Below are positions 2,140 to 40,948 of a stretch of DNA of 64,000 bases, piece by piece. The DNA is taken from positions 14,434 to 78,433 of the forward strand of contig JACOVG010000021.1 of NCBI GenBank assembly GCA_016177405.1, in the 5' to 3' direction. The notes beneath the pieces were generated by a model. The model did not search any database. It had not been told where the DNA came from and saw only the letters and a list, made by a program, of their open reading frames with translations. The stretch is from Candidatus Omnitrophota bacterium. GTDB lineage: Bacteria > Omnitrophota > Gorgyraeia > 1-14-0-20-64-10. The stretch's first letter is position 1. Every line of letters starts with the position of its first letter. A program made the translations under genes and the position numbers.

Positions 2140-2202
2140 CCCCTGTCATCTCGAACGAGGCCTCTGTCATCTCGAACGAGACCCCTGTCATCTCGAACGA
2201 AG
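2140..2202. repeat. Three tandem direct 21-bp repeats cc(c/t)ctgtcatctcgaacga(g/a)(g/a), with degenerate partial copies on both sides
   Basis: cccctgtcatctcgaacgagg / cctctgtcatctcgaacgaga / cccctgtcatctcgaacgaag are read directly from the sequence. The third copy contains the stop codon of the upstream TIM-barrel gene. The array lies about 120-180 nt upstream of the ROK regulator start. Confidence 0.8.
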
Positions 2203-4991: not shown

Positions 4992-5027
4992 CGGCGGGAA
5001 ACCCCGGCGGGGAGCATGGGGGGTATC

Positions 5028-8645: not shown

Positions 8646-9299
8646 ATGAAACCTAAGCTTCTGATCGCTTGCGATTTCGACGGAACGCTCACCCGGCAGG
8701 ACACCCTGGTGACGATCCTGGATTCCTTCGGCTCCCCTTCCTGGAGGGAAGTCCAGCAAAAGGTCGTTTCCGGTGAAATCCCGATCCGGGAGGGGCTCGC
8801 GGCGGAGATGGCCTCTGTCCGGGCCAACCGCGAGCAGTTGATCGAGCTTTTGACCCAGCAGGTTGGCGTGGATCCGGCTTTTTCCGGCTTCCTTCATCTG
8901 ACGCGGCGGGAGGGGGTGCCCCTGGTCTGCCTGACCGGCGGCTTCGACCTGTGCGTGGAGACGGTTCTCAAAAAGGAGGGGCTCTGGCCTCTGCCTTATC
9001 TTGCCAACCGGCTCCTGAAGGATAACGGCTCCTGGCATGTGGAGTTTCCGTACCCCTCGGCCACCTGCGCCGCCTGCGGCCACTGCAAGGCCGATCCGAT
9101 CCGCGGCTGGAACGAGCAGGGCTACACCACCGTCTTTGTGGGCAACGGGGTAACCGACCGCTGCCCGGCCCGGGTGGCCAACCTCACCTTCGCCAAGGAG
9201 GAGCTGGGCCAGTGGTGCCAAAGCCAGGGTCTGCCCTGGGTGCCTTACGAGAATTTCTCTGACGTCGAGCAGGAATTAAGGAGGAGGGAATGGATATAA
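8646..9299 (+). CDS. HAD-superfamily subfamily IB phosphatase, MtnX-like (2-hydroxy-3-keto-5-methylthiopentenyl-1-phosphate phosphatase family)
   Basis: Begins with the DFDGTLT HAD motif I, has the C-x-x-C-G-H-C-K Cys motif typical of MtnX-like proteins, and ends with the GNGVTD motif. Confidence 0.6.
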   Translation: MKPKLLIACDFDGTLTRQDTLVTILDSFGSPSWREVQQKVVSGEIPIREGLAAEMASVRANREQLIELLTQQVGVDPAFSGFLHLTRREGVPLVCLTGGFDLCVETVLKKEGLWPLPYLANRLLKDNGSWHVEFPYPSATCAACGHCKADPIRGWNEQGYTTVFVGNGVTDRCPARVANLTFAKEELGQWCQSQGLPWVPYENFSDVEQELRRREWI

Positions 9300-9973
9300 A
9301 AACGAGATTGCTTCGGGCCCTTGGGGCCCTCGCAATGACGACCACTTTTCTTTCGCCCCTCACCCTTGACCCTTCATCCGCTTACGCCTCGGTCAAGCAG
9401 GAGGTGTACGTCAGCGGGACGGTGGAGTCCTTCGGCGGCTACACCTTCACCGAGTCGCTCACCTTCACCGTGGACAAGCCCGGCTCCCGGGAGATCGGCG
9501 CCATCACCATGGAAGGCGTCTACAACGGGGAATACCCCTGGATCCTTCGGGCCTACACCGACAACTTCCACTACACCGGAATCGGGGGCGCCAGCCGCCC
9601 GGCGAGCGCCGCGGGGCTCGTGTCCAAGGACGGCCGCTTCGCGATCCCACTGGAGGTTCACTCTCCCCTGTACGACGAGGGGATCTGGCGCCGGGTCCCG
9701 GATCTAAGCGATCCGGATCCCATCCCCTACCAACCCGAGCCGGATCTGCGGCCGACGGTCTACACCGACTGCGTTCTGATGGGGATAGACCCCCGGAACG
9801 GCGCCTGGGTGGCGGGCCCGGACGGGGTGCTCTTCACCGCCGACGACTCGCTGCTGGGCGACTTCACCGCCAAGACCCCCTGCGAGATCCTGGTCCGGGC
9901 CAACGCCGACGCCGCCGCGGCCGCCGGCGAATATGAAACCTTCCTTTATCTCGAGATCGTCCCCGCCCCGTGA
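9290..9973 (+). CDS. Secreted protein of unknown function with the shared LAMT leader; paralog of 10881..11912
   Basis: The signal peptide is MDIKTRLLRALGALAMTTTFLSPLT. The block AAGLVSKDGRFAIPLEV is shared with 10881..11912 (AGLVSADGRFAIPLKL). The G.Y..F/L.LE-V/I C-terminus resembles a beta-strand terminus of pilin or spore-coat-U-like subunits. Confidence 0.6.
   Translation: MDIKTRLLRALGALAMTTTFLSPLTLDPSSAYASVKQEVYVSGTVESFGGYTFTESLTFTVDKPGSREIGAITMEGVYNGEYPWILRAYTDNFHYTGIGGASRPASAAGLVSKDGRFAIPLEVHSPLYDEGIWRRVPDLSDPDPIPYQPEPDLRPTVYTDCVLMGIDPRNGAWVAGPDGVLFTADDSLLGDFTAKTPCEILVRANADAAAAAGEYETFLYLEIVPAP
9304..9340 (+). repeat. Leader cassette copy (gagattgcttcg-gggcccttggggccc-tcgcaatgacg)
   Basis: Identical over ~38 nt to the reverse complement of 29509..29546. 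Confidence 0.8.
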
Positions 9974-10884
9974 AAAACCGGTGGTCATCGCGAGGCCCGG
10001 AGGGCCGTGGCGATCTCGCTTTAAAAACGGGATTGCTTCGTCCGCCAAAAATCATTGGCGGACTCGCAATGACGTTTTTATTTCTCACGACTGCCTTGGC
10101 GGTGGAGGTCAGCCCCACCCGGCTCGAGCAGGCCATCTCCGCCGACCAGCCGACCCTGGGGACCTTGGAAATCTCCAATCCCTCCTCCCGGGCGGCCCGC
10201 GTCCAGATCCAAACCGGGCCCTACCGCTACCTCGAGCCCAAGTTCAGGCTCCCCTCGGCCGAAGATTGGTTTCAATTCGAGCCGGCCGCCTTCAGCCTGG
10301 CCCCCGGAGCGTCGCTTACGGTTTCGTACACGATCACCCCGGCGGCCAACGTCCGGGACGACGCGGCCGCCGAGTACCTGGCCGCAATCCTGGTGGACCA
10401 GCTGCCGGAAGAGCCCAACGTCATTGCGAGGAGCAACAGCGACGAAGCAATCTCGCAAGCCTCGCCACAGAACGTTGGCGGGCAAGCCAAGGTCACCTTC
10501 GTGCCCCGCTTCGCCGTGCCGGTTTACCTCACCCTTCCGGAACGGGAGAAAAAGGAGCTGGAGCTTGCGGGGCTCACCGTCCGGGTCGGAGAATCGCCGG
10601 ACCTCTTGAGGTTCGGCGTCGCGCTTAAAAACACCGGCACGGTTCACCTTCGGCCAGCGGGCTCTTTGGTGATCCTCTCCGAGGCGGGGACAGCCGTCGA
10701 ATCCAGAACCCTGGGCAGATCCCTCCCCATCCTTCCGGGCGCCACCCTGGAGCTCCCGGCCCTGGTTCCCATGCCCGGGAGCGCGGGCCGGTACCGGGCC
10801 GCCGTCACGGTCCAAGCCGACGAAGCTCTCCTTCTGCAAAAAGAGATCGGCTTCGAGGTGACGCCCGAGGGGGCCGTGAAGTGA
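9970..10884 (+). CDS. Secreted two-domain beta-sandwich protein, PapD/pilus-chaperone-like fold candidate
   Basis: Has the LAMT leader, followed by two ~110-aa repeats with the chaperone-like pattern (VEVSPTRLE...TLEISNPSS.RAARVQI...FEPAAFSLAPGASLTVSYTI, and a second copy VTFVPRFAVPVYLTLPE...). The GTG start overlaps the stop of 9290..9973 (GTGA). Confidence 0.45.
   Translation: MKNRWSSRGPEGRGDLALKTGLLRPPKIIGGLAMTFLFLTTALAVEVSPTRLEQAISADQPTLGTLEISNPSSRAARVQIQTGPYRYLEPKFRLPSAEDWFQFEPAAFSLAPGASLTVSYTITPAANVRDDAAAEYLAAILVDQLPEEPNVIARSNSDEAISQASPQNVGGQAKVTFVPRFAVPVYLTLPEREKKELELAGLTVRVGESPDLLRFGVALKNTGTVHLRPAGSLVILSEAGTAVESRTLGRSLPILPGATLELPALVPMPGSAGRYRAAVTVQADEALLLQKEIGFEVTPEGAVK
10030..10074 (+). 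repeat. Leader cassette copy (gattgcttcg-tccgccaaaaatcattggcgga-ctcgcaatgacg, followed by tttttatttctc)
   Basis: Core inverted repeat tccgcca/tggcgga. About 60 nt are nearly identical to 10893..10950. Confidence 0.8.
10419..10455 (-). repeat. Inverted-orientation leader cassette copy embedded in-frame in CDS 9970..10884
   Basis: cgtcattgcgag-gagcaacagcgac-gaagcaatctcg is the reverse complement of the leader consensus. It is translated as NVIARSNSDEAISQA in the inter-domain linker. Confidence 0.7.
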
Positions 10885-11912
10885 AAAAAATGAGATTGCT
10901 TCGTTCGCCAAAGTTCATTGGCGGACTCGCAATGACGTTTTTATTTCTCCCCCCGGCTTTCGCCCAGAAGGCCCTGCGGATCGGGTCGGTCTCTTACGAT
11001 CAGCACGTCCACTCCACCGAGCTGATTAAGTTCACCGTGGCCGTCAAGAACAATGAGGCGACCACCCAGTTTGCCGAGGTGGACATCACCTTGACCAACG
11101 TGGAGACCGAGCAGGAGCTCACCCTGGTGCCCGTGCTCACCGGGAATGTCCTGGCCGGCCAGGAGTCTGTCCTGGTCACCACTTACCAGAACATCCCTGA
11201 CGGCACCTACACAGTCAGCTTTCCCCTTTTTGACGGCGACGGTGTCCGGGTGGACCGGGTCACCGGGTCCACCCCCATCCACATCGGCACCGAAACCGAA
11301 ACCCTGCAGGTCTTTCCGGAGGTGATTCATTTGGGAACCCTGCCGCCGGGCCGCGCGATGTTCCCGACGCCCATCGAGGTGCGCTGGGCTTTCTACCGGT
11401 TCAACCGTTTAAGACTCGATCAGCCCTTCTACATCCGGATTTACTCCGACAACGCCGCCCGCTACCGCGGCGTCCGGGGCGCCCTGCGGCGCAACTCGCC
11501 GGCCGGCCTGGTCTCCGCGGATGGGCGCTTTGCCATTCCGCTGAAGCTCTGGAACCTGAACTACGGCCCGGACATGCAGGAGGGGGGCTGGGACGCCGCC
11601 CTGGCCGGGCCGCCGCCTGTGGACGACGACGCCTTCTGGATCGGCCCGGAGCTTCTGGAGGGGGGCCGCAACCTCGGCTCGGCCAACTGGGTGAGGATCC
11701 CGGATCTTTCGGAGATGACCTCGGACCCGGTGAGCTGGCGGCGGCTGATCGGCCAGGACCCGTTCGACAACCGGTATGTCTCCGACTCCAATCAAACCGG
11801 AGACTTCACCCTAAAGAGCCCCTTCACCCTTTATCTGGCCGCCGAGGCGGGACCCACCGCCGTGGAAGGGGCCTACACCGCCAACCTCGTGGTGGAGCTG
11901 TGGGACCCGTAG
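10881..11912 (+). CDS. Secreted protein of unknown function with the LAMT leader; paralog of 9290..9973
   Basis: The signal peptide is MKKMRLLRSPKFIGGLAMTFLFLPPAFA. It shares the blocks named above and the C-terminal pattern GAYTANLVVELWDP. Confidence 0.6.
   Translation: MKKMRLLRSPKFIGGLAMTFLFLPPAFAQKALRIGSVSYDQHVHSTELIKFTVAVKNNEATTQFAEVDITLTNVETEQELTLVPVLTGNVLAGQESVLVTTYQNIPDGTYTVSFPLFDGDGVRVDRVTGSTPIHIGTETETLQVFPEVIHLGTLPPGRAMFPTPIEVRWAFYRFNRLRLDQPFYIRIYSDNAARYRGVRGALRRNSPAGLVSADGRFAIPLKLWNLNYGPDMQEGGWDAALAGPPPVDDDAFWIGPELLEGGRNLGSANWVRIPDLSEMTSDPVSWRRLIGQDPFDNRYVSDSNQTGDFTLKSPFTLYLAAEAGPTAVEGAYTANLVVELWDP
10893..10938 (+). repeat. Leader cassette copy (gagattgcttcg-ttcgccaaagttcattggcgga-ctcgcaatgacg, followed by tttttatttctc)
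   Basis: Read directly from the sequence. Confidence 0.8.
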
Positions 11913-26628: not shown

Positions 26629-27174
26629 TTACCAGGGCTGGCGGCTCTCCTCGCCGGGGACGGCCCCGAAGGTCTTGTCCGGCTTGCCGTCGAAATCTTC
26701 GTCCACCCGCCCCCCGGCGATCTTGGTGCCCCCCAGGGCATAGTAGAACCAGGCGTCCGGTTTGCCATCGTGGTTCTTGTCCATGATCATGAGGTCCTTG
26801 ATGCCCTCTTTATAGTAAGACCAGGCGTCGGGTTTGCCGTCGAAGTTGAGATCCGCCCGTTCCCGAATCGCCAAGCCCTTCTCCATCTGACGCAGGAGGT
26901 CCGGCTTGCCGTCGCCGTTGCGGTCCACCTCGGAACGCTCCGGTTTTCCATCCTTGAAGTAGATCACGATCTCCCGCTTGCCGTCCCCCTGCCGGTCCCT
27001 CTCCACCCGGACCAGGAGATCCCCCTCGTAGAACTTCCACTCATCCGGTTTGCCGTCCTTGTTCGTGTCCAGGGCCTCAACCCGCTCCTTGGCCGCGAAA
27101 GCGGCGGAAGGCAAAAGAAACAGCGCCGTCATTGCGAGGACGCGAAGCGGACGAAGCAATCTCTCTTTTTTCAT
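26629..27174 (-). CDS. Secreted calcium-binding-like repeat protein with six D-x-[DN]-x-DGKPD repeats
   Basis: Has the LAMT leader (MKKERLLRPLRVLAMTALFLLPSAAFA). Repeats: DTNKDGKPDEW, DRQGDGKRE, DRNGDGKPD, DLNFDGKPDAW, DKNHDGKPDAW, DEDFDGKPD. These are EF-hand/excalibur-like DxDxDG loops. Confidence 0.65.
   Translation of the reverse strand: MKKERLLRPLRVLAMTALFLLPSAAFAAKERVEALDTNKDGKPDEWKFYEGDLLVRVERDRQGDGKREIVIYFKDGKPERSEVDRNGDGKPDLLRQMEKGLAIRERADLNFDGKPDAWSYYKEGIKDLMIMDKNHDGKPDAWFYYALGGTKIAGGRVDEDFDGKPDKTFGAVPGEESRQPW
27127..27165 (-). repeat. Leader cassette copy (cgtcattgcgag-gacgcgaagcggac-gaagcaatctctc)
   Basis: Read directly from the sequence. Confidence 0.75.
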
Positions 27175-27766: not shown

Positions 27767-28657
27767 TTACTGCCGAACCACCCGAAGGTCCCGGTGAACG
27801 GTCAAGGTCAGCCCTTGGCCGCGGGACTTCTCCACCTGAAGCTGAACCTCCTTGAGGGGCAAGTAGCGGGTCGCCTGTCCGTCCACGGCGGCGACACGGT
27901 CGCCGGCGAGCAATCCCGCGCCCGAGGCGGAACCTCCCGGGTCCACCGCGGCCACGGTCAACCCCATCCTCTCCGTGGAAAACCGGAAGCCCGGCCAGGC
28001 AGGCTGCGCGGGGCCGGCGGGGATGAGTTCGATCCGCCGCGCGAGGGTGATCTTGGCCATCGACCCGCCGGGCCCCAGGAGGAGATACGCCGCCTCCCGA
28101 ACCGGCAAGAAGGCCAGCGACTCTCCCCAGACCGCCGTCAACCGGTCGCCGGCGGCGATTCCGGCGCGCTGGGCCTGCGACCCGGGCTCCACCGACTGGA
28201 CCTCGGGGTATCCCTCGCCGGCCTTCAACCGCAGGCCCCAGCGCGTCAAGAGCTCGCCGGACAAATCGGCGGACAGCGTAAGCGAAGGGACGCCGCGCTT
28301 GGCTTTGAGATCGGCCGCCCGGTTCAGGGCGTCATCGGCCTCCTGAAATTCCGGGTAAATCTGCAGGGCCTTGCGAAAGAGCCCCTGGGCAACGGTGAAA
28401 TCGCCGCCGGCCAGCGACCGGTTTCCCAGGTACAGGTAGTTGCGCTCCGGATCGTCAAAGAAGATCTCGTCAATCTCGCCGCGCGCGATCACCCGTTCAC
28501 CGTCCACGGTGCTGACCACAATCCTGTCCCGGTGTTCCTCCACCACCAGCCCCTTCAGCTCCTCGCCGGAGGTGAAGTAGATCGCGTCCGCGAAAGCGGT
28601 GGAAAGAAATAAGAACGACATTGCGAAGGCCCCAAGCAATCTTGTTTTCATTCGCAC
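27767..28657 (-). CDS. Secreted tandem-PDZ-domain protein
   Basis: Leader MRMKTRLLGAFAMSFLFLSTAFA. Two PDZ-like segments (VEPGSQAQRAGIAAGDRLTAVWG and VDPGGSASGAGLLAGDRVAAVDG) follow an N-terminal TPR-like helical region. Confidence 0.6.
   Translation of the reverse strand: MRMKTRLLGAFAMSFLFLSTAFADAIYFTSGEELKGLVVEEHRDRIVVSTVDGERVIARGEIDEIFFDDPERNYLYLGNRSLAGGDFTVAQGLFRKALQIYPEFQEADDALNRAADLKAKRGVPSLTLSADLSGELLTRWGLRLKAGEGYPEVQSVEPGSQAQRAGIAAGDRLTAVWGESLAFLPVREAAYLLLGPGGSMAKITLARRIELIPAGPAQPAWPGFRFSTERMGLTVAAVDPGGSASGAGLLAGDRVAAVDGQATRYLPLKEVQLQVEKSRGQGLTLTVHRDLRVVRQ
28617..28645 (-). repeat. Degenerate leader cassette copy (cgacattgcgaaggccccaagcaatcttg)
   Basis: Read directly from the sequence. 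Confidence 0.6.
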
Positions 28658-29556
28658 AGCTTCTTGTAGCTTTCGTAGTGGTGAATCGCCAGGCCGCCGA
28701 AGCCCGCTTGGCCGCCCACGGCGTTCACGATCTTCTTGAGCTCCCGGCTCATCACGTTGCAGGTGGTCCCCCCGAAACTCACGTACGCGGGGAAAAGGTC
28801 CTCCTGGGTTTCCTGGCCGATCAAGACCGGCTTGCCCACTTGGCCCCCGTACTCCAGTTCCAGCCGCACCAGGCGCAGGGTTCCATCCGATCCCTCGGCG
28901 AAATTCCGGTAAGCCATGACGGTGACGGTGTCCACCGTGTCCAGGATGTGCTGGGTGGGGCTCTTGACCGAGCCTCGCCAGAGAATCCGGTAGCTGGCGT
29001 CGTCGTCAAACCAAAAGGGAATGTCCACCCCGAAAATCACGGGAACCGGCTCCTTCCGTATCGCTTCGGCCATCTTCGCGTTCAAATCCAGGTAGCCCCC
29101 CAGAAGCTCGCCCGGCCGTTCGTTCCAGGCCTGGGTCAGCAAATACACCTCCACATCGGAGTGAATCCCGTCGAAGCGCTCCTCGGGCGGGGCCTGGCGG
29201 TTCATCTGAAGGACCGCGCCGGTCCAGGCCATGGGAAGGGTGTGGTAGCGGCTCTTCCCCCAGCGCGGGTCGCCCGCCAGGGCATGGACCGAAAGCCCCA
29301 TCTCGTGGGCCTGGCGGTTAAAATCGCGGTACGTCCGGTCCCAGGGGGGCTCCAGGTTGTAGGCCGACAGGTACAGCGTGCCGATTTGGTGCCTTCGGCA
29401 GAAAGCCAGGAGTTTTGCCTTGGATTCTGGTTTGGCGGCGATGCGGGCGTCCCAGACCCACATCGCCCGGGGCGGCTCCTCGGCGAAAACGGAGGGGAGA
29501 AATAAAAACGTCATTGCGAGGGCCCCAAGGGCCCGAAGCAATCTCGTACCCCTCAC
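28648..29556 (-). CDS. Secreted TIM-barrel glycoside-hydrolase-like protein (GHL/DUF4015-type, family uncertain); paralog of the central domain of 32083..34419
   Basis: Leader MRGTRLLRALGALAMTFLFLPSVFA. Conserved blocks shared with 32083..34419: MWVWD/SWVWKYD, AHEMGLSVHALAGDPRW/AHEAGVHVEALQGNPLW, GKPVLIGQETQ/GKKVVIGVETQ, GFGGLAIHHYESYKKL/SFGGLAVHAYDSYRLL. Confidence 0.6.
   Translation of the reverse strand: MRGTRLLRALGALAMTFLFLPSVFAEEPPRAMWVWDARIAAKPESKAKLLAFCRRHQIGTLYLSAYNLEPPWDRTYRDFNRQAHEMGLSVHALAGDPRWGKSRYHTLPMAWTGAVLQMNRQAPPEERFDGIHSDVEVYLLTQAWNERPGELLGGYLDLNAKMAEAIRKEPVPVIFGVDIPFWFDDDASYRILWRGSVKSPTQHILDTVDTVTVMAYRNFAEGSDGTLRLVRLELEYGGQVGKPVLIGQETQEDLFPAYVSFGGTTCNVMSRELKKIVNAVGGQAGFGGLAIHHYESYKKLCE
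29509..29546 (-). repeat. Leader cassette copy (cgtcattgcgag-ggccccaagggccc-gaagcaatctcg); exact reverse-complement match to 9304..9340, preceded by gagaaataaaaacg
   Basis: Read directly from the sequence. Confidence 0.8.
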
Positions 29557-30266
29557 TCGAGGGTGATGTCGTCGAGGTAAACGGTTCCCAGCCCCGCCCC
29601 CTCGGGATAAAGTTCCCCCTCGAAACAGATCGAGATGGAAGCCAATTTGGTGTAGTCAATGAAGTAGGAGGACAACGGAATCACCGCCTTCTGCCATTCG
29701 GCCGTCAACCGGCCCGCCGGCAGGTACTTGCCGATCTCCTCGGACTTGACCGAATCCCCCACCCGGTCCCAGTGCCGGTCGGCCAGCCCCACCATAAAGT
29801 TCTCCTCCCCCTTGTCTCCGCGGACCCAGAAGGTGACTGCCTGGTAGCCGGAGGCGTCAAAATACTGCTCCCCCACCATCGGGGGGCTGGGTTGGTCGGT
29901 GGTGGGCGCCACCAGATAACCGCTTGTCTTTAGAAGGGTGTAATAGCCGCACCAACCGCCCATGCCGTAGGGTCCGCCCTCTGACTGCTTGTCGTAACGG
30001 ATCAGGAGCACGCTGCTCTTGGCGCCGTTCACCTCTTCCTCCACCCGGCTCATCATGATCCGAGAGGGGGCCTTCACATAAACATTGGCCCGCCCGCCGG
30101 CCCGGTTCTGGATCTCCTCCCCTTCAAAATCGTCCACGAGGAGCGGCTCCGCCGCGAAAGCGGTCGTGAGTCGCGCGTCGTGAGTCGTGAGTAGAAAGAC
30201 GCAGAAGGCAAGCCCTACAGTCCTTACCCATGACCCATGACCCATGACCCATGACTTTTTCTTCAT
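29553..30266 (-). CDS. Secreted single-domain protein carrying the recurrent CBM-like beta-sandwich module
   Basis: Module motifs: PLLVDDFEGEE..., GGWCGYYTLL, VTFWVRGDKGEENFMVGLADRHWDRVGDSVKSEEIGKYLPAGRLTAEWQKAVIPL, GTVYLDDITLE. Two heptanucleotide repeat tracts lie in the signal-peptide codons. Confidence 0.65.
   Translation of the reverse strand: MKKKSWVMGHGSWVRTVGLAFCVFLLTTHDARLTTAFAAEPLLVDDFEGEEIQNRAGGRANVYVKAPSRIMMSRVEEEVNGAKSSVLLIRYDKQSEGGPYGMGGWCGYYTLLKTSGYLVAPTTDQPSPPMVGEQYFDASGYQAVTFWVRGDKGEENFMVGLADRHWDRVGDSVKSEEIGKYLPAGRLTAEWQKAVIPLSSYFIDYTKLASISICFEGELYPEGAGLGTVYLDDITLE
30164..30191. repeat. Heptanucleotide tandem repeat (tcgtgag x3 plus variant tcgcgcg) inside the signal-peptide codons of 29553..30266
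   Basis: tcgtgag tcgcgcg tcgtgag tcgtgag, read from the sequence; it encodes LTTHDARLTT. Confidence 0.75.
30226..30253. repeat. Perfect heptanucleotide tandem repeat (cccatga) x4, 10 nt downstream of the start codon of 29553..30266
   Basis: cccatgacccatgacccatgacccatga; on the coding strand this is (TCATGGG)x4, encoding SWVMGHGSWV. Each unit is 7 nt, so it is frame-shifting and carries out-of-frame ATGs. Confidence 0.8.
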
Positions 30267-30275
30267 TTTGTCCTC

Positions 30276-30899
30276 CTACTCCAGCTTAAGATCATCCAGG
30301 TAAACCGTCCCCCTGCCCACACCGCCGGGGAAAAGGGTGCCTTCGAAGCAGATGGCGACGGAGGCCGTCTGCTTGTGATCCAGGAAGAAGGCCTCCACGG
30401 GAATGACGGCCTTCTGCCATTCCGCGGTGACCTTCCCGGCCGGCAGGTACTTCCCGATCGGTTCGGACTTCACGGAGTCCCCCACCTCGTCCCAATGGCG
30501 GTCGGCCATTCCCACCAGGAAGTTCTCATCGCCGGCGGCCCCCCTCACCCAAAAGGTGAGGCTCCGGTAGCCGGAGGCGTCGAAGTAGCGGCTGCCGCTC
30601 TTCAGCAGGGTATACCAGCCGCACCAGCCCCCGGAATCGTAAGGGCCGCCCCGCCCCTTCTTGTCGTACTTCAACATCAGGGAACCGGAGCCTTGATGGG
30701 CCGGGTCCTTCACCAAAAGGGCCAGCGACCGTGAGGGCTCTTTCAGGTAGGTGCTGGCGCGCCCGCCCAGCTTATTGACCGAAGCCCCCTCGAAGTCGTC
30801 AATCAACAGGGGCTCCGCCGCGAAAGCGGCGGTAAGCGGTAAGCAGTAAGCAGTAAGCAAAACAGCGGTCATCGCGAGCAATCTCTTTCTCATTCCCAT
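30276..30899 (-). CDS. Secreted single-domain protein carrying the recurrent CBM-like module; close paralog of 29553..30266
   Basis: PLLIDDFEGASVNKLGGRAS..., GGWCGWYTLL, LTFWVRGAAGDENFLVGMADRHWDEVGDSVKSEPIGKYLPAGKVTAEWQKAVIPV, GTVYLDDLKLE. Confidence 0.65.
   Translation of the reverse strand: MGMRKRLLAMTAVLLTAYCLPLTAAFAAEPLLIDDFEGASVNKLGGRASTYLKEPSRSLALLVKDPAHQGSGSLMLKYDKKGRGGPYDSGGWCGWYTLLKSGSRYFDASGYRSLTFWVRGAAGDENFLVGMADRHWDEVGDSVKSEPIGKYLPAGKVTAEWQKAVIPVEAFFLDHKQTASVAICFEGTLFPGGVGRGTVYLDDLKLE
30831..30858. repeat. Heptanucleotide tandem repeat (ggtaagc x2, agtaagc x2) in the signal-peptide codons of 30276..30899
   Basis: ggtaagcggtaagcagtaagcagtaagc, encoding LTAYCLPLT on the coding strand. 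Confidence 0.75.
30868..30886 (-). repeat. Truncated leader cassette copy (gtcatcgcgagcaatctc)
   Basis: Read from the sequence; it lacks the central hairpin. Confidence 0.5.
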
Positions 30900-32086
30900 T
30901 CCTCCAACAGCTCTTCCTGGGTTTTACGGATAAAGATCAAATCATCCAGATAGACCCTGCCCTTCCCCGGGCGGTGGAAATTCACCACGAAAGAGCCCAT
31001 CTGCGTCCAATCCAGTTTACCAAATTGGGCAAGCGGTATCACCACTTCCTGCCAGCCGGCGGTGAGCCCGCCGGGCAGGAACTTCTCAATCGTTCCGGCC
31101 TTCACCGAATCCCCGATGGTGAGCCACGACTTGTCCGACAGGCCGATCTCGAAGGTCTCCCCTCCCTTTTCCCCGCGCGCCCAAAAGGAGAGGGCCTTGA
31201 AGGGGCTCAAATCGTAGTAGGCGCCGTCGATCTGGTTTAAGAGGGTGTAATAGCCGCACCAGCCGGTGGCCTGCTTGTCGAAATCGAGCCGGAGGGATCT
31301 GCCCTGCTCCCCCCGCCGGGACTCCAGGACCCTCTTCGCCAAACACACGGAGGGAGGCCTCTTATAGGTCCCGGTCTTGCGGCCCAGGAGATTGATGTCG
31401 CTGTGGTCAAAATCGTCCAGGAGCAGAAACCCCTGCCGCTGGGCGGGTTCCTGGACCGAAACCAGCGGCTCCGTGTCAAACCGCAGTCCGTCAATCCAGA
31501 AGGCGCCTTCCCCTTCCTCGTTGAAGTTAAAGACCAGGCTGTAAACGCGGCTTAGATCCACCCCGAAGAAATCCTCCAGGGGCACGCGGACCTCCTGCCA
31601 GTCCGTGGTGATGCCGCCGGGCAGATACCGGTGGATCGAGCCGATGAAAACAGCGTCCTCCCGCTTGTTGGAAATGGTGTCGTTCATGCCGATCTCGAAG
31701 GTTTCTCCCCCCCTGGCTCCCTTCACCCAAAAGCTTAACGCGGCAAAGCGGGACAGGTCCCCCAGCACGATGAGGTAGGCCCCGCAGAAAAAGGGGTCCT
31801 TCGCCCGCCGGTAGCGGTATCGAACGGCCCCCGGCGAGGCCGGATCCTGCTTCACCCTCTCGTCCAGATAACAGCCGTACTTCGAGGGCTTCATGGCGAA
31901 GCCGCCGGTCTTGCCCCTCTTGGCAAAGCGCTCCTCGGCCGGAAGGAGCTTCGTGCCCAGCGGCAGGGGGGCGGCTTCGTCGAGAGAAACCATCTCCGCG
32001 AAAACAGCGGTAAGCAGAAGGAGGGACGCTCCAAAAAGGGACACACCTCGGCAAGAGTGTCCCCAAATGGAGCGTCCCCTTTTCAT
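30890..32086 (-). CDS. Secreted protein with two tandem copies of the CBM-like module
   Basis: Copy 1 has ...LSFWVKGARGGETFEIGMNDTIS...WQEVRVPLEDFF...FWIDGLRFD. Copy 2 has GFLLLDDFDHSD..., GWCGYYTLL, LSFWARGEKGGETFEIGLSDKSW..., RVYLDDLIFI. The likely start is the ATG at 32084-32086 (MKRGRSIW...), overlapping the TGA of the upstream gene (ATGA); the track start of 32125 is probably too far upstream. Confidence 0.6.
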   Translation of the reverse strand: MKRGRSIWGHSCRGVSLFGASLLLLTAVFAEMVSLDEAAPLPLGTKLLPAEERFAKRGKTGGFAMKPSKYGCYLDERVKQDPASPGAVRYRYRRAKDPFFCGAYLIVLGDLSRFAALSFWVKGARGGETFEIGMNDTISNKREDAVFIGSIHRYLPGGITTDWQEVRVPLEDFFGVDLSRVYSLVFNFNEEGEGAFWIDGLRFDTEPLVSVQEPAQRQGFLLLDDFDHSDINLLGRKTGTYKRPPSVCLAKRVLESRRGEQGRSLRLDFDKQATGWCGYYTLLNQIDGAYYDLSPFKALSFWARGEKGGETFEIGLSDKSWLTIGDSVKAGTIEKFLPGGLTAGWQEVVIPLAQFGKLDWTQMGSFVVNFHRPGKGRVYLDDLIFIRKTQEELLEEWE

Positions 32087-34450: not shown

Positions 34451-37400
34451 CTACAGCTGCGTTGAAACGGCGGCGGAATCTTCCAGGCCGGACTCAACGG
34501 AAGGCTCCTGCCCCGCGCTCGGCAGCCTCCTTTCCAGATCAATGCGGGCCGCCGCCGCCTGAAGACCCTTTTCCACCTCCAAGCTGACGATTTGCGGGTC
34601 GATCCCAAAGATGTCCAGGAACCCTCTAACGTGAAGCTCATTCAGAAAACCGACCGCCCTGAAACTGAAGGGATAGGTCGCGGCGAAAAGCCGGCGCAGC
34701 CACTCCTCCAATTCTGCCCTTGTCTTCTGCTTCTCCTCTCCTTCCGGGATTCCCTCGCCCCAGTCCGTCAGGTTCTCCACCAGGATTCTAATCTCCCTCC
34801 AGGAGGCCCTCTCCTCCGGCCGATTTTCCGGGTCGAACTCCATCCTTTCAATCACCATGCGGCGGATGATCCGAAAGAGGTAGCCCCACGGCTTGCTCTC
34901 CCGCAGGGTGGCCGAAGAGGTCCCGAGGATCAACGGACGCTTTTCTTCAAGCGATCTCAAGGCCCCATAGGGATCCAGGAGAATCGCTTTTTGCGGGTCG
35001 GCCGGATGGGGCAGCAGAACCATCATCTCGGCGGCCAGCATCAGCTTTCCCTGGTAGGGGTCGCCCTTCCCGGCGGCATGCTCGGTGATCCGCAATCCCG
35101 CCGGGTCCAGCAGGCCTCCCCAAAGCTCCACGATCTTTTCCTCGCTTCCCCTGCCAAAGGTGGGTTGTTTCAGTCCCGCGTCTTGGGCCAGGCCAGGGAA
35201 AAGCGCCCGCGGGTCGGACACGCCCAAGACTTGACACAACCCTTTGATCTTGGGCGCCAGGCGCTCCAGGCGCCAGGCCTCCTCCGGGCTTTTCGCCTCC
35301 GGCAATAGATTGATCTCCTCCTGAACCTCCCAGGCCTCTTCCTTCTCCGCCACCAGCACGAGGTCCAGATCCTTAAAGGCCCGCTCGGCTCTGCCCCCTT
35401 CCGCCAAAAGACTTAGCACGCTTCCACCGTGCAGCCCAATCCGGAAGAGCCCATTTTGATGAAGCATCTGCAGGAAGCGCTTCGCCGGGTGATAGGCGAA
35501 CCGCCTTAAGTCCATCTCATAAAGACCATCGGCCAGCGGCACGACGGCCTGATGAAAGAGCCGGGAGCGAACCACGAACTGGCTTATGGCGAGCCACCCT
35601 TGAGGATCCTGCCGGAATTCCGTCGGATACCCTATCAGGGGAGCCAGCGGCCCCCCCGGCCCCTGCAGCATCCAAACCGGCAGGGAGTAGCCGCGGATCT
35701 CCGGATCCATCACCGGCGGAACATTGAGCCGGAGGGTTCGGGGGTCCAGCAGCCAGGCCAGATCATCCCAGGCCGCGTCGTCCCATTGGTCCACCCCTTT
35801 CAGGACCAGCCTCATCTGCCGGTCCCTCAAGAAAAGCCAAAGCCCTTCCGGCAGCCACACCTCCCTTAACAGGTTGAGGGAACCCCCTTCCGCGCTCAAG
35901 TAGTGGACTCCCGATCCGCTAAGCTCCAGCACAGCCGCCTTCGCGGCCCTCGCCGTTGGGCGGATGGTTTCCTGGACAAATCTCCTGTAGCCTTCAAAAG
36001 GGGCGCCGGAGCCAGCCGGCGAAGCGACAAGCTCCATCCTGCCGGAGCCCAGCCAGCGGAGCTCCAGGCCCCAAACTCCTTTCAGGGGAGGAAAAGGCTC
36101 TCCCCGCTGCAGGGCCTCCAGATCCACCGTGCCGATCTTAGAAAGGAGAGAGGAGATTTGCCTTGAGAGGGCTGGATCGCTCTTTACCTCGTCGGGAACG
36201 TCGAGGTGAAACACCCTTCTTTCCTGGAGGGATTCCTCCAACCGCGCCAGGGAGGCATCCGCCTCTATTCCTCTTGGAGGAAGGCGTCTCAATCTGGATT
36301 CATAGAGATCAACCTGGTTGGGAGAAGGAAGGCCGCCCAGCATCACCCGGTCGGCTTCATCTCCAACCGTGGAAGAAACAAAGCTGTTGGCCAGGGTGTT
36401 TCGGTTGAGGTCCAGAGGGACTCCCGCTCCCTGCCCGCGATAACGCTCCAGCCGCTCGCTGAATCCGCTCTGAACCGAAGGGATCATCAGCTCGCTCAAG
36501 CCCGGCCTCGTGCTTCCCAGCACCACGTAATCCGGCCACTCGAATCGTTCCCGGAAAATCGATCGGGTCTCCATGAGCCAGACGGCCAAGGCGATTCCCA
36601 GCTCTCTGCCGGATTCCCAAATGGCCGTCTTGGCCGGATTCTCCCCTCGCTCTTTTTCAGGCCTGTTCGCGGCAGCCACGAGCCCGCCCAGCGTCAGTTG
36701 ATCGGCCTTCAAGAGCTCCCTGGCGCGCGCCAGGATCCTGGCGATGCTGACCCTATCCTCCAGGTCCTGCTCCCCAGGGGCCAGGGTGGGATGAAAACCT
36801 TTCGTTTCCCTGGCAACATAACGATAGTCGGGGCTCCCCGGGTTTCCGGTGAAAATCAGATGGTGGGGCGCCTCGCTGTGGTAAAGGATCTCCGGCTCTC
36901 CCTGAAAGGATTTTCCGTTGACAACCATCTGGGCGGCAATGCCGTTTCCAATGTGAACAAACAACAGATTGTCTACTCCCGGACAAGTCCCCCTTAGGCC
37001 TACTTCCCCCCTTGCCCCTGCCCGCGCGTTGGAGACCACATCTACCTCCAGGCGGCCCAGGGAGGGATCGCGTTTGCCCTCGTAGAGTTGGTCCAGTCTT
37101 TTTTGGACCTCTTCCTTGAAAGAGAATCCTTTCGGGAACACGGGGAGCCAGGAGATTCGCTCAACCAGCGCGCCGTCCGAATCCACAAAGCCGGGAACAG
37201 AAAAATAGACGTACATGACCCTGTCGGGCCCATACCGCTCGACCACCCGCCGGATCGCCTGGACGAGGCGCTCGACAATCTCGCCGGGCGCGTCGCTCCG
37301 GTCCGGTTTGAGAAAAATGCGTTCGTGCTCGGCCGGCCCCCAAAAGCCCTGCGGGATACCGGCCCGGAAGACGATTGCCTGGTCCTCCCCGACGCCCATC

Positions 37401-40400
37401 TTGCCGACGACGGCCACAGGCCCTTCATAATCCGCCACGCGGGCCACGTGGCGGCTGGCCGACGACCGCTCCTCCAGGCCGGCACCGAGCGGAGCCGAGG
37501 GGCCGGCACCGCCGGAAACGGTGCCGGTTTCGTAGCCGGCGAGCGCGGCGACAAGCGGCCGGCCTATCTGCCCGCGCTGTTTCGAACCCAAATCGGCGGC
37601 GGCTTTTAAGATGGGATGCGTTCCAAACAGCTCCTGCTGGGTGTCGGCCGACCCGCCCCAGAGACTGCCGGAAACGGCGCCCGCCTCAAGTAGGAGCCGG
37701 GCCATCTCCCGCGCCGTCACATGGGCCGTCACCCAAAGGAGGATGATCTGGCCGTCGTCTCTTACCCCGATGGCCGACATCGCCCCGGCCCTTTCCCGCG
37801 GGTTCCAAACCAATTCGTTGGGCCGCACCTTAAGAGGGATCCCGTCTTCGCGAACGCTCCAACGAAGCTGTCCCGAGACGTCCTTCCCGTCGAGGACAAG
37901 CGGCATGCCGGAGACGGCATGGAGAATCTCGGAAGGCCGCGCTTCCCGCGCCACCGCCCTTCCCCCCTCAATCTGGGCGTCCACCAGCTCTTCGATGCCG
38001 GGCGAATCTCCCCGGTTGGAACCGAACCGCAAGGCCGCCATCCGGGGCGGGCCCGGCTCCAGGACAAAGGCCCAGAAGGAGTCGTCGTATCCCCTCTCGC
38101 GCAGCGTTTGGACATCCAAGGGGTATTTTTCCCAAGCCCAGTGAGGCCGGATCACCCGGCCGAGCGCCACCAGGAAGCCGTAGGGCTCCTTGAGATTATG
38201 CTGGCCGCTGTTGGAGAGATAAACCCTTTGGGCCCCCGGCGGCAGACCCTCGGGAGGCGCCTTCGCTTTCTCCTGCCAGGCCTCAAGCGTGAGCCCGGCC
38301 CTCCTGAACCTCTCCAGAAGCGCCGGGTCAACCGGCCCGGTCTGGAACTCCGGAAAAGCTTCTCCTTCCACCTCCGGATCCCAGGCGGACACGAGCTTCA
38401 ATCTGGAAAGATCCGGCAGAACCACCCGCCCAGCCGGCTCCCCCTTCCCATCGAGGACCGGCCGGACAACCCCGATCGGCCCCCCCAGAGCCCCCTGCCA
38501 CGCCTCCTCCTTCCCCAGCCGCAGCTCCTCCAACCCCGCGTCGGGTTTGAGAAGCTCCGCGCTTTGCTCTCCTGTAATCCTGATGAGCAAGAACCCCGTT
38601 TTCTCAACAAAGGCCTTATCGGCAAGCAACTCCTTGATGAGAACGGTGGTGAGGAAGGTTTTATCCCTTTTGAGCCGGCCTTGGAACGCTTCCCAGGCCT
38701 TTCGGTCCTTCACAATGACCACCAGGGTATGGTCCTTGCGAAATCGGCGGTGGTCGGCGCGCCAATTGCTTAAGGCAGCTTGGCCCCGCTGGATCTGGCC
38801 AACAGATTCGGCCGTAGGCTGGATGTACCAAACTCCCTCCTCGCCTTGGAGGTCATCTTCCACCCAGCTTGTCGCGAGGGCGCCGTCAGGAACTCCGTCC
38901 AGCGTCAGGTTGAGCCGCTCACCGTTAAGCCGAACCTCTTTCACCGAAACCCCGGGACTGCCGCCCTCCTTGGCTTGCGCTGAAGCCGTCCATCGCGGCG
39001 CCTGGCCGGCCACCTTCATCTCCCGATCTGGCAAGACGTTGAGGTAGTCGTCGGCCGGCAGCCCCTCCTGAAGGAGATCGTCCAGCACAATCCCCTGGTG
39101 ACCATTGGAGGCGACGGCCAGCATGGTGTTGAAGAAACCTCGGATGTCCAGGGTGGCGTAAGGAGCCCCGCCGTAGATCTCGGCGAGGCGCAGCATGGAA
39201 CGGATCAGCTTTTGGGCCAGGGCGTAGGCCCACTCTCTTTTTTCAAGGTCGGCCGCGTAATAGCCAAACTGAACCAAGCGGAAGATGATGCTCCAGGTGA
39301 TCTCCGGCTGAAGCATCCTGTCGTAATTCTCGTTGGGTGGAACATGGGGATCCTTAAAATTCGGGTCAAAGAAGATGACGCCTGTAAACTCCTCCTTGGG
39401 ATCAACCCCTTGGGGAAGGTGGCTGAACCCTTGGGCCTTCAGGGTTCTCAAGAAATGCCGCTCAACATTTTTGAGTTCGTTCTCGGCCATCTCCGGGTCG
39501 TAGGCGCCCTGGGGGGACCAAACCTCGTTGTCGGCAGCCCAGGAAAGGTTGAGCGTTCCATCCGGATCCATGCCGGTCGCCCAACGCCTCTTACCGGGCA
39601 GCCCCTGGATGATCTGCGCCACCCTCTCATGTTCCTGCCGAACACCCTTCTCCAGATTGCCTCCGGCTTCCAACTCCAGGCGCCTTAACTGGGCCTTCAC
39701 CTTTTCCGGCGTAAGAAGCAATCTCTTGCTTTCCTTCATCGCCAGCTCATGCCTGGAGGCAATCTCTCTAAGAAACGGCGATTGGAAATCTGCGGTTTGG
39801 TTGGCCCGGTAGGCCAGCCGGAGGGCATCGATGTAATCCCAGTTGTGCTCGGTGGTGATCTCTTCCCGCTGGAGATTGGATTTCTCAAAATCGGACTCGT
39901 TGCCGGTTCCAAAGCCGGCCCGAAACAGGCCGTAGCGGGGATCGGCCGGATCCGTCACCTGCTGGGCGAAGGCCGTCTCCGCCAACTTCGTGTTGATCCC
40001 ATTCAGGAACTTCGGATCTTTCGTTTCCAAGGCCAGGAGGTAGAGCCCCTTAAAAACCCAGGCGGTTCCGCCGCTCATGGCCCGGGCATCGGTGAAGGTG
40101 GTCCCGTAAGAGAAGCGCCAGCCCCCCTTTTGCCCCTTGGCCTCCATCTGTCGGGCGATGTCGATCATCCGACCGGCCAGCCACTGGGCCTCTTCCATCT
40201 CTCCCCGGCCCACCAGGTATTTGAGCGTCACCCCCATGTCGTAGGCCCAGAAGCGCTCCACCCCCAGATATCGATCAAAGGGATGCCGGGGATCCGACTG
40301 GTAGCTTTGGTATCCTTGGACTCGAAAACCCTCCGGGGCCTTGACAGGACCTTCCATCTTCTGGGCGGTAAAGAAATCTCTGGTCTTCTGCCTCCAGAGG

Positions 40401-40948
40401 GTCATCCGCTTGACCAGCCCGGCATCCAGGTTTTCGATGAAGCGCCGCGTGGGAGGTTGGGCCGGCCCAGGAGAGGGGGCCTCTTGCCCCAAGATGGGCC
40501 TGGGTAACCCAAGGAAGGCCGCGCCGGCCCAAAAGAGGGCGCGCCTGCCAAATTCCCTTCGATCCATCCAGCCGGCGGGCGTTGGCTGGCCGGAACGGAG
40601 GGCCTCTTCAAGCCCCACAGCCACGGGATTGCGAAGTCGGTCGTCCGCGGGCTGGATCTGCTTTAAAGAGCCGGCGAAGTCTGAAACCTCGTCCGAGATG
40701 ACGGATGGCAGGCCGGCCTTTTGGGCCTCCAGTTCCTGAAGGGCCTTCTCCTCCAGCTCAACGTTCCACCCCTTGGACCAGGAGTGGCTGGAAATACCCC
40801 CTGCTGTTTGCTTCTTTTCCGCGGCGGAGGGCGGGGAATCCTCCCCGTCAGCCGCCCTCGCGGGAAGAGGCAGAGAGGTCCACTCAAAGGTGAGCGCCAG
40901 AAGAAGCGCCAGGAGACGGCGGGATCTGCTTCGCATTCCCTTAGGCAA
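34451..40948 (-). CDS. Giant secreted multidomain protein (2165 aa). Contains a signal peptide, an N-terminal helical (alpha/alpha)6-glycosidase-like region, a phosphodiester-glycosidase-like domain, a ROK/ASKHA sugar-kinase-like domain, and a C-terminal Pol-beta-type nucleotidyltransferase motif.
   Basis: Continuous 6.5 kb ORF. The PDG-like domain (NPRERAGAMSAIGVRDDGQIILLWVTAH...REMARLLLEAGAVSGSLWGGSADTQQ) is paralogous to the C-terminus of giant 1. ROK/ASKHA-like motifs: VAVVGKMGVGEDQAIVF... and LLFVHIGNGIAAQMVVNGKSFQGEPEILYHSE. NTase motif: IGLHGGSVLSLLAEGGRAERAFKDLDLVLV, near 35.4 kb. Confidence 0.7.
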   Translation of the reverse strand: MPKGMRSRSRRLLALLLALTFEWTSLPLPARAADGEDSPPSAAEKKQTAGGISSHSWSKGWNVELEEKALQELEAQKAGLPSVISDEVSDFAGSLKQIQPADDRLRNPVAVGLEEALRSGQPTPAGWMDRREFGRRALFWAGAAFLGLPRPILGQEAPSPGPAQPPTRRFIENLDAGLVKRMTLWRQKTRDFFTAQKMEGPVKAPEGFRVQGYQSYQSDPRHPFDRYLGVERFWAYDMGVTLKYLVGRGEMEEAQWLAGRMIDIARQMEAKGQKGGWRFSYGTTFTDARAMSGGTAWVFKGLYLLALETKDPKFLNGINTKLAETAFAQQVTDPADPRYGLFRAGFGTGNESDFEKSNLQREEITTEHNWDYIDALRLAYRANQTADFQSPFLREIASRHELAMKESKRLLLTPEKVKAQLRRLELEAGGNLEKGVRQEHERVAQIIQGLPGKRRWATGMDPDGTLNLSWAADNEVWSPQGAYDPEMAENELKNVERHFLRTLKAQGFSHLPQGVDPKEEFTGVIFFDPNFKDPHVPPNENYDRMLQPEITWSIIFRLVQFGYYAADLEKREWAYALAQKLIRSMLRLAEIYGGAPYATLDIRGFFNTMLAVASNGHQGIVLDDLLQEGLPADDYLNVLPDREMKVAGQAPRWTASAQAKEGGSPGVSVKEVRLNGERLNLTLDGVPDGALATSWVEDDLQGEEGVWYIQPTAESVGQIQRGQAALSNWRADHRRFRKDHTLVVIVKDRKAWEAFQGRLKRDKTFLTTVLIKELLADKAFVEKTGFLLIRITGEQSAELLKPDAGLEELRLGKEEAWQGALGGPIGVVRPVLDGKGEPAGRVVLPDLSRLKLVSAWDPEVEGEAFPEFQTGPVDPALLERFRRAGLTLEAWQEKAKAPPEGLPPGAQRVYLSNSGQHNLKEPYGFLVALGRVIRPHWAWEKYPLDVQTLRERGYDDSFWAFVLEPGPPRMAALRFGSNRGDSPGIEELVDAQIEGGRAVAREARPSEILHAVSGMPLVLDGKDVSGQLRWSVREDGIPLKVRPNELVWNPRERAGAMSAIGVRDDGQIILLWVTAHVTAREMARLLLEAGAVSGSLWGGSADTQQELFGTHPILKAAADLGSKQRGQIGRPLVAALAGYETGTVSGGAGPSAPLGAGLEERSSASRHVARVADYEGPVAVVGKMGVGEDQAIVFRAGIPQGFWGPAEHERIFLKPDRSDAPGEIVERLVQAIRRVVERYGPDRVMYVYFSVPGFVDSDGALVERISWLPVFPKGFSFKEEVQKRLDQLYEGKRDPSLGRLEVDVVSNARAGARGEVGLRGTCPGVDNLLFVHIGNGIAAQMVVNGKSFQGEPEILYHSEAPHHLIFTGNPGSPDYRYVARETKGFHPTLAPGEQDLEDRVSIARILARARELLKADQLTLGGLVAAANRPEKERGENPAKTAIWESGRELGIALAVWLMETRSIFRERFEWPDYVVLGSTRPGLSELMIPSVQSGFSERLERYRGQGAGVPLDLNRNTLANSFVSSTVGDEADRVMLGGLPSPNQVDLYESRLRRLPPRGIEADASLARLEESLQERRVFHLDVPDEVKSDPALSRQISSLLSKIGTVDLEALQRGEPFPPLKGVWGLELRWLGSGRMELVASPAGSGAPFEGYRRFVQETIRPTARAAKAAVLELSGSGVHYLSAEGGSLNLLREVWLPEGLWLFLRDRQMRLVLKGVDQWDDAAWDDLAWLLDPRTLRLNVPPVMDPEIRGYSLPVWMLQGPGGPLAPLIGYPTEFRQDPQGWLAISQFVVRSRLFHQAVVPLADGLYEMDLRRFAYHPAKRFLQMLHQNGLFRIGLHGGSVLSLLAEGGRAERAFKDLDLVLVAEKEEAWEVQEEINLLPEAKSPEEAWRLERLAPKIKGLCQVLGVSDPRALFPGLAQDAGLKQPTFGRGSEEKIVELWGGLLDPAGLRITEHAAGKGDPYQGKLMLAAEMMVLLPHPADPQKAILLDPYGALRSLEEKRPLILGTSSATLRESKPWGYLFRIIRRMVIERMEFDPENRPEERASWREIRILVENLTDWGEGIPEGEEKQKTRAELEEWLRRLFAATYPFSFRAVGFLNELHVRGFLDIFGIDPQIVSLEVEKGLQAAAARIDLERRLPSAGQEPSVESGLEDSAAVSTQL

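Follow-up and report, generated by a model that had tools for sequence, protein, structure and literature searches.

Heptanucleotide arrays in the signal-peptide codons of an Omnitrophota gene cluster: candidate portable hairpin cassettes and an unlikely phase-variation switch

A 64,000-nucleotide (nt) stretch of a Candidatus Omnitrophota genome (GenBank assembly GCA_016177405.1, contig JACOVG010000021.1, positions 14,434 to 78,433; the whole stretch is hereafter called the window) carries two adjacent genes for secreted proteins, gene A (29553..30266, minus strand) and gene B (30276..30899, minus strand), whose signal-peptide codons contain tandem tracts of 7-nt units. We favour, with moderate confidence, the explanation that these tracts belong to portable signal-peptide/hairpin cassettes of constrained length, which are composed of short-period arrays and are characteristic of this Omnitrophota cluster. 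The initial annotation of this DNA had proposed a slipped-strand contingency locus. Judged from the sequences compared here, an ON/OFF phase-variation switch at the gene A and gene B tracts appears unlikely.

Three period-7 arrays were detected in the window by Tandem Repeats Finder (TRF), at 30163-30192 (4.3 copies, 82% matches), 30226-30255 (4.3 copies, 100% matches) and 30832-30859 (4.0 copies, 95% matches). They are the only heptamer tracts of at least three copies in the 64 kb, according to a perfect-repeat scan with units of 4-12 nt. Each holds exactly four units, and all lie in 5' signal-peptide codons on the minus strand. Tract 1 of gene A (30226..30255) is a perfect (TCATGGG)x4, which occupies codons 5-14 (SWVMGHGSWV) of the n-region and serves as the 5' arm of a hairpin. 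Tract 2 of gene A (30163..30192) reads CTCACGA CTCACGA CGCGCGA CTCACGA, covers codons 26-35 (LTTHDARLTT) and serves as the 3' arm. The gene B tract (30831..30858) is composed of (GCTTACT)x2 and then (GCTTACC)x2 in codons 14-23, encodes LLTAYCLPLTA and has no inverted partner. Only tract 1 is pure; the other two are impure, as their match values indicate. The presence of three heptamer tracts in the signal-peptide codons and their positions, as first annotated, were borne out by sequence reading and by TRF, apart from a trivial one-base error in the register of the first tract. The two genes are indeed paralogous, with 61% identity between them. The G+C content of the window is 62.5%, and no Rfam family was found in it.

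Two other readings of the period were dismissed. Programmed -1 frameshifting was rejected by inspection, as no unit matches the slippery pattern X XXY YYZ. A heptad repeat selected at the protein level was ruled out as well, because the arrays have a periodicity of 7 nt and not only of 21 nt.

Genes A and B are each predicted to begin with a Sec (type I) signal peptide ending in AFA|AE. Inspection gives MKKK.../VGLAFCVFLL/AFA|AE for gene A and MRKR/LLAMTAVLLTAYCLPLTA/AFA|AE for gene B. The initial annotation suggested that the hydrophobic core of both signal peptides was built from the repeat, which is true of gene B only, where the tract forms part of the core. In gene A, the true hydrophobic core (RTVGLAFCVFLL) is encoded by the loop or interior of the cassette between the two tracts (30192..30225, minus strand), and tract 2 encodes the polar stretch before the AFA|AE site. 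When three units (21 nt) were deleted in silico from each tract, textbook signal peptides were left behind (gene A, MKKKSWVRTVGLAFCVFLLTTAFA|AEP; gene B, MRKRLLAMTAVLLTAAFA|AEP).

The two tracts of gene A are approximate reverse complements; as RNA, every unit can contribute five Watson-Crick pairs and a G.U pair, with an A.C mismatch at the remaining position. The arms can form a hairpin of some 28 bp, with interruptions, which begins 12 nt 3' of the ATG. The 5' 141 nt of gene A gave a minimum free energy of -48 kcal/mol and a z value of -2.37 (3 of 200 shuffled sequences fold as well), with a second estimate of z -2.0.

Scans of genome and metagenome collections yielded 84 related loci, and exact-protein look-ups added L008, L085 and L086. 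Non-homologous genes of one locus share segments of 55-170 nt that reach from the start codon to the cleavage site, with four copies in L002 (86-95% identity) and two each in L001 (89%), L007 (93%), L039 (86%) and L023 (80%). The mature parts of the genes sharing such a cassette do not align, and the repeat units vary from genome to genome. The gene A cassette itself can be aligned over six genes of four families from five genomes (window gene A, L008, L011, two genes of L001, and L027). Five of the six cassettes keep 4+4 units, and the consensus hairpin is likewise kept in five. As for the state of the arms, both are perfect in L011, the 5' arm is perfect in the window, and the arms are degenerate in L001 and L027.

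L011 comes from a close relative, in which the mature parts are 83% and 94% identical to the window proteins. In this locus (655-790, 1326-1420) the gene A cassette, with 4+4 units and both arms perfect, is found on the B-type protein, while the A-type protein carries an intact GAGATTGCTTCG...CTCGCAATGAC hairpin and then ACTTACA x4. The gene upstream in L011 is homologous to window open reading frame (ORF) 10881..11912; hence the gene arrangement differs. A protein search with the gene A signal peptide alone gave no candidates.

In the usual arrangement across the loci, a purine-rich array forms the basic n-region and its reverse-complement, pyrimidine-rich array forms the hydrophobic or distal part. 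Inverted pairs of this kind are GGTGTAG/CCTACAC (L025), AAAAGTC/ACTTTTT (L007 and L048), GGCAGTC/TTCTGCC (L013, L028 and L049) and GTTCGTG/ACGAACT (L002); L002 additionally carries a 10-nt inverted pair, CAGGGGTTAG/CCCCTGCTCT. The z value was below -2 in 17 of the 26 array regions, reaching -8.9 in L011, -10.4 in L039 and -6.4 in L001. In the stems of 22 hairpins, 703 Watson-Crick and 124 G.U pairs stand against only 18 single A.C mismatches, and this excess of G.U over A.C would fit pairing on the sense RNA.

We propose that a 7-nt unit, being read in all three frames, may yield a basic, polar n-region from a purine-rich arm and hydrophobic or small residues from the pyrimidine-rich complement, such that an inverted array pair would amount to a generic signal peptide. 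Slips of one unit ruin the frame, so that the arrays would be frozen at the count they have by purifying selection, and only steps of three units and point changes would survive. The cassettes would then spread among the genes of the cluster via recombination or gene conversion.

Inverted heptamer arrays occur between genes too, which makes the hairpin, and not the coding role, their common denominator. In L007 they lie at 9638-9727 and 10530-10642, flanking a nagB-like gene; in L077 they are found outside genes at 10689-10746 and 14861-14936, between convergent genes. These intergenic arrays may be terminator-like or REP-like (repetitive extragenic palindromic) hairpins of the same repeat class.

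The intergenic arrays at both L007 sites and at L077 14861-14936 bear on another explanation, namely that selfish hairpins of the REP, Rickettsia palindromic element (RPE) or miniature inverted-repeat transposable element (MITE) kind landed in frame and were kept as signal peptides. This domesticated-element origin also agrees with sequences that are uniform inside one genome but diverge from genome to genome, and with a second palindromic element, GAGATTGCTTCG(N12-21)CTCGCAATGAC, of which the window holds at least five copies against none expected and which, in frame, provides the n-region RLLR....LAMT for the signal peptides, at least eight in number, of secreted proteins that are unrelated to each other. 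REP elements and bacterial interspersed mosaic elements (BIMEs) are short extragenic palindromes in operons, and where a hairpin is close to the start of a downstream cistron, translation of that cistron can come to depend on the one upstream. Our elements resemble them as short palindromes in operons with a genome-specific sequence, but the hairpin is in this case internal to the coding sequence, 3' of the start codon, and any coupling role is putative. In-frame precedents are enterobacterial RU-2, which makes up a portion of the signal peptide predicted for Y. pestis YPO1552, and the RPEs, palindromic elements inside genes of Rickettsia (PMC2759123). Both are, like the elements described here, genome-specific hairpin-forming repeats lying in frame in genes. 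They are, however, isolated MITE-like insertions of 100-170 bp, whereas the Omnitrophota elements are tandem arrays of 7-nt (or 10-nt) units, span the whole signal peptide and recur at the starts of consecutive genes of the cluster.

Meanwhile, a crude scan over all loci found no REP-associated tyrosine transposase (RAYT) or IS200-type transposase, with 0 matches to the motif HUH...Y..NP, and the gene A heptamer cassette is present in one copy only within the 64 kb window. Moreover, the start codon and the cleavage site are always the exact limits of the cassettes; therefore gene conversion between signal-peptide segments fits better than random insertion. We hence regard a domesticated mobile element as doubtful, although this explanation concerns the origin of the arrays and is compatible with the cassette explanation that we favour.

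Array periods were surveyed in two ways. TRF statistics covered 85 loci (794 kb), and a lag-based detector with a stringent threshold was run for periods 4-15 on 69 non-redundant loci (622 kb). In the TRF set, 61 of the 92 arrays with at least 2.8 copies had period 7, and the rest were mostly of period 10, 14 or 21. The lag detector returned 21 arrays of period 7, eight of period 10 (all in L002) and four of period 14, with 0-1 arrays at each of the remaining periods between 4 and 15. Locally shuffled sequence of the same 622 kb gave no array at any period at the stringent threshold. As to position, 16 of the 21 stringent heptamer arrays lay within the first 150 nt of a greedily called gene, a zone holding 12% of the bases. 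The other five proved to be in signal-peptide codons as well once the starts were corrected by inspection, the outliers being due to over-extended ORFs, wrong-strand ORFs or contig-end artefacts. At the protein level, a run of at least three identical residues at a lag of seven was seen in the N-terminal region of 15 of 89 family members, compared with 0-7 members at other lags. Genes that bear arrays are not confined to the paralogues resembling carbohydrate-binding modules (CBMs), since they include a neighbour family of 300 aa (EPPRAMWVWD), a PDZ protein, an EF-hand-like protein and a few others.

In L002, 10-nt units (CAGGGGTTAG, CCCCTGCTCT and CTGACCCTTG) stand in place of heptamers at the start of four consecutive genes, where the cassettes measure 150-170 nt (4990-5159, 6391-6559, 7399-7551 and 8960-9129). 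Both 7 and 10 leave a remainder of 1 when divided by 3.

The survey also bears on the idea that the arrays are neutral by-products, according to which replication slippage and gene conversion make arrays everywhere, but only those that preserve the frame in signal peptides survive, since a signal peptide accepts nearly any sequence that passes from basic to hydrophobic; there would be no role beyond coding. In its favour, arrays are missing from most orthologues, many genomes have degenerate ones, there is little covariation inside a cassette type, and L008 has lost an arm without harm. Yet such a process predicts periods 3, 6 and 9 in coding DNA, and these are nearly absent (one array of period 6 and none of period 9). 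It further leaves unexplained the complementarity of the arms in cassettes with unrelated units, and the 4+4 arm length that persists while the units homogenise. A purely neutral origin thus strikes us as possible but rather improbable, and portable cassettes of constrained length remain the preferred explanation.

The initial annotation had pointed out that the gain or loss of one unit would shift the frame and that the first tract lays down out-of-frame ATGs. Both statements are correct: a change of one or two units cuts the product from the annotated ATG to 11-61 aa, and tract 1 provides ATGs in all three frames. Nevertheless, whenever tract 1 has at least three units, an in-frame ATG is kept in its third-from-last unit, giving MGHGSWVRTVGLAF... 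(MGHGSWVR...). Tract 1 would therefore not be a clean off switch, and its OFF state would be leaky.

Slipped-strand contingency would require that single units be gained or lost often, either switching both CBM-like proteins or shifting initiation to internal ATGs as a form of bet-hedging. The perfect tract 1 with its ATGs in all frames, the placement of 7-nt units in 5' coding sequence, where one-unit changes truncate the product, and the turnover evident from homogenised arrays (window, L011) beside degenerate ones (L001, L027) can be cited in its favour. There are precedents as well. In Neisseria opa genes, CTCTT pentamer repeats lie in the region coding for the signal peptide, and the tracts are long, pure, variable from cell to cell and often out of frame. 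The likeness is considerable: the unit is not a multiple of 3 and lies in signal-peptide codons, a pyrimidine-rich unit is hydrophobic in every frame, and a one-unit change shifts the frame. By contrast, the window tracts have four units, a count conserved from genome to genome, two of the three are impure, and no tract was observed out of frame; in addition, the gene A tracts form an inverted pair, which opa lacks. The second precedent is neuO of E. coli K1, where the heptanucleotide AAGACTC is repeated 2-93 times just after the start codon, three units make a heptad of seven residues, and the gene is ON only at counts that keep the frame (PMC3046976). Here too a 7-nt unit lies in the 5' coding region, but neuO undergoes frequent single-unit changes in a cytoplasmic N-terminal domain, whereas our tracts have four stable copies in a signal peptide and, in gene A, a complementary array. 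The reservation of the initial annotation that four copies are short for efficient slippage is well founded when set against the range in neuO.

Unit counts in relatives gave a divided answer. L008 (a Logan contig, obtained with protein P0001) encodes a 91%-identical gene A orthologue with a single TCATGGG unit against four in the window, and its tract 2 has four units (CTCACGA CGCACGA CGCACGA CTCACGA). Hence the number has changed in evolution, as a contingency locus would have it. The change nevertheless amounts to 21 nt and keeps the frame, and because four units are present in the window, L011, L001 and L027 alike, it is most simply read as a single 21-nt deletion in L008. In flank-anchored comparisons between loci, array lengths differed by 21 nt (window versus L008) or by 3 nt. 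Locus pairs with 100%-identical flanks from different samples, some of which may represent the same population, showed no difference in array length. Thus the arrays do turn over on an evolutionary time scale, as seen in the homogenised and degenerate arms and in the 4-to-1 change, but the count of four is conserved across deep divergence and the only change observed is an in-frame step of three units.

A search for out-of-frame alleles was also made. Of the 273 copies of the domain found by tblastn, 168 have an in-frame signal peptide and 39 represent the internal second domain of a two-domain protein; for 45 the alignment covered only what follows the N-terminal part of the domain, contig edges account for 10, and 11 are others (further internal domains, long linkers, a masked stretch, the chimeric contig L085, and L052 with an in-frame TGA). 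No gene was out of frame at an array among the array-bearing genes and the 168 intact copies. Two candidate OFF alleles were examined and rejected. P0122 (182 aa) is encoded on contig L085 (ENA). Positions 1-51 of this contig are the reverse complement of a homologue of the 852-aa gene of the cluster and run straight into the middle part of an orthologue of gene A; since this 5' end is unrelated, the contig is an assembly chimera or a rearrangement and not a frameshift. In L052 (8-110), the frame of the signal peptide is lost through one in-frame TGA where relatives have a Cys codon (TGT to TGA), between signal peptide and mature part and with no array involved; it is a nonsense allele, a sequencing error or a recoding. 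Exact-protein look-ups with gene A, the 207-aa form of gene B, the 302-aa neighbour and two alternative starts returned no match, contigs being obtained from the look-ups of P0001, P0122 and P0104 only, and none of the Logan contigs codes for the gene A protein in full length.

The layout of the tracts is that of a translational contingency locus. The proposal that they act as one is nevertheless not supported by the sequences compared, given the 4+4 units kept in five of six cassettes, the two impure tracts and the lack of any out-of-frame allele at the arrays, and we assign it a low probability, although rare slippage is conceivable. Phase variation should not be called from repeat architecture alone.

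Several observations weigh against the explanation that we prefer, that of length-constrained portable cassettes. One of them would favour contingency instead: L086 (Logan SRR12113421), from the same population as the window, is identical through gene B, spans the gene B tract, and then ends inside tract 1 of gene A after 2.6 units, at 1047-1077. This break could reflect copy-number heterogeneity or, equally, low coverage. If heterogeneity in unit number is real, the tracts would be the first contingency loci proposed for Omnitrophota. Furthermore, all loci were selected for carrying this gene cluster and are not a genome-wide sample, and the 7-residue signature is found in only about 17-37% of the family members; therefore most orthologues manage with ordinary signal peptides. 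The gene B tract is a single array without a partner, and its fold is not unusual (z -0.39 and -0.2). RNAalifold recovers the hairpin of the gene A cassette, but double changes are seen in only 3 of 34 pairs, and the G.U excess in the stems could reflect selection at the protein level for U in hydrophobic codons and not selection on the RNA. Finally, L008, which is short of three 5'-arm units, does not fold (z +0.9), yet its gene is intact; together with the many array-free orthologues, this indicates that any role of the hairpin is dispensable.

With this in mind, the least certain part of our explanation is the role of the hairpin beyond coding. Our best guess is that an mRNA hairpin near starts that are closely spaced or overlapped as ATGA or GTGA would limit independent initiation and so tie translation to the upstream cistron. 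Overlaps of the ATGA/GTGA type also open the cassettes in L001, L002, L007 and L011.

Heptanucleotide repeats in excess are known from another bacterial lineage. Short tandemly repeated repetitive (STRR) sequences are a lineage-wide excess of tandem heptanucleotides in heterocystous cyanobacteria, mostly non-coding and without an established function. To our knowledge, they have not been reported as inverted pairs encoding signal peptides. Although the unit length matches, the host here belongs to Omnitrophota and the arrays lie in signal-peptide codons, so they are not STRR sequences. The term STRR is used in PMC4748335 and PMC5088731. None of the known systems compared here combines tandem arrays, inverted pairing, coding of the whole signal peptide and sharing among unrelated genes. 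Searches of the literature on Omnitrophota, and broader ones, brought up no account of signal peptides encoded by heptamer arrays in this phylum. We raise, as a tentative possibility only, that Omnitrophota may harbor an undescribed class of genome-specific inverted pairs of short period (7, sometimes 10 nt), each of which would form both a Sec signal peptide and an mRNA hairpin after a coupled start. Such pairs would be exchanged among unrelated genes for secreted proteins, would generate or replace signal peptides and would regulate the translational coupling or dosage of the secretome.

Should the cassette explanation be correct, it would offer a concrete mechanism, open to testing, for how signal peptides arise, are replaced and come to be common to unrelated genes. 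One polar and one hydrophobic arm would follow automatically from an inverted repeat, and the reading frame itself would guard a unit that is not a multiple of 3 against single-unit slippage. Some of the secreted proteins of this uncultured phylum, which has host-dependent members, would also become recognisable by a sequence signature, and attention would be drawn to a candidate mRNA element in operons with tight coupling.

Gene A encodes a secreted single-domain protein of 237 aa with a CBM11/CBM30-like beta-sandwich and is identical to MBI1953367.1. Its paralogue gene B, identical to MBI1953368.1, encodes 207 aa from the ATG at 30899; an alternative start, the ATG at 30893 chosen by NCBI, gives 205 aa and overlaps the upstream stop codon as ATGA. 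Both proteins are weak matches to Pfam CBM30 (E 9e-6 for gene A), and a sequence-profile search of PDB finds CBM30 as well. The AlphaFold model of gene A has a pLDDT (predicted local distance difference test) of 90; its top Foldseek match is CBM11 6r3m (E 1.4e-8), with CBM30 also among the best. Residues 10-36 of the model form a lone helix (pLDDT 65-79) outside the beta-sandwich, as expected of a signal peptide. Relatives carry Omnitrophota annotation, and the source metagenome-assembled genome is assigned to Candidatus Omnitrophica.

The surrounding cluster of secreted proteins comprises an 852-aa protein (CBM + CBM9), a two-domain paralogue of 411 aa, genes B and A, the 302-aa protein, a PDZ protein, a HAMP-like membrane protein and an EF-hand-like protein. 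Stops and starts overlap as ATGA at 30890-30893 (411-aa gene and gene B) and as GTGA at 29553-29556 (gene A and 302-aa gene), so the operon is tightly packed. By sequence reading, the Shine-Dalgarno sequence of gene A, GGAGGA (30271..30276, minus strand), lies 4 nt 5' of the ATG and overlaps the TAG stop of gene B. A single GCTTACC unit (32002..32022, minus strand) in the signal peptide (LLLLTAVFA) of the upstream 411-aa paralogue reads as the one-unit state of the gene B tract. A small GC hairpin, CCGCCGC-TTTC-GCGGCGG (30815..30832, minus strand), encodes the AAFAAE cleavage region of gene B, and a shorter form of it is also present in gene A (30143-30158). Very long ORFs are found elsewhere in the window, at 34451..40948 (minus strand) and around 56850 (2165 aa and 3269 aa), in agreement with the giant proteins that Omnitrophota reportedly possess.

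Copies of the second palindromic element, GAGATTGCTTCG..CTCGCAATGAC, are located in the window at 9304-9339 (plus strand), 10420-10454 (minus), 10892-10936 (plus), 27128-27163 (minus) and 29510-29545 (minus), and partial copies at 9984-9994, 10063-10073 and 30868-30878. ORFs that exemplify the RLLR....LAMT n-region are 6320..8605 (minus), 9290..9973 (plus), 9970..10884 (plus), 10881..11912 (plus), 26629..27174 (minus) and 28648..29556 (minus). The copy at 29510..29545 (GAGATTGCTTCGGGCCCTTGGGGCCCTCGCAATGAC, minus strand) makes up the n-region (RLLRALGALAMT) of the downstream 302-aa gene, which has a GTG start, while gene B retains a deleted remnant of the element in its n-region (GAGATTGCTCGCGATGAC, encoding RLLAMT; 30868..30885, minus strand). 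The occurrence of this element in many signal peptides thus points to a general tendency of the genome toward hairpin-repeat signal peptides. A further repeat, a 21-nt tandem unit CCCCTGTCATCTCGAACGAGR in 2.9 copies, lies at 2140-2200 of the window in the gap between ORFs 2188..4743 (minus) and 820..2022 (minus), and terminates in GTCATCTCGAACGAAGTGAGAGATC, another repeat-like hairpin motif.

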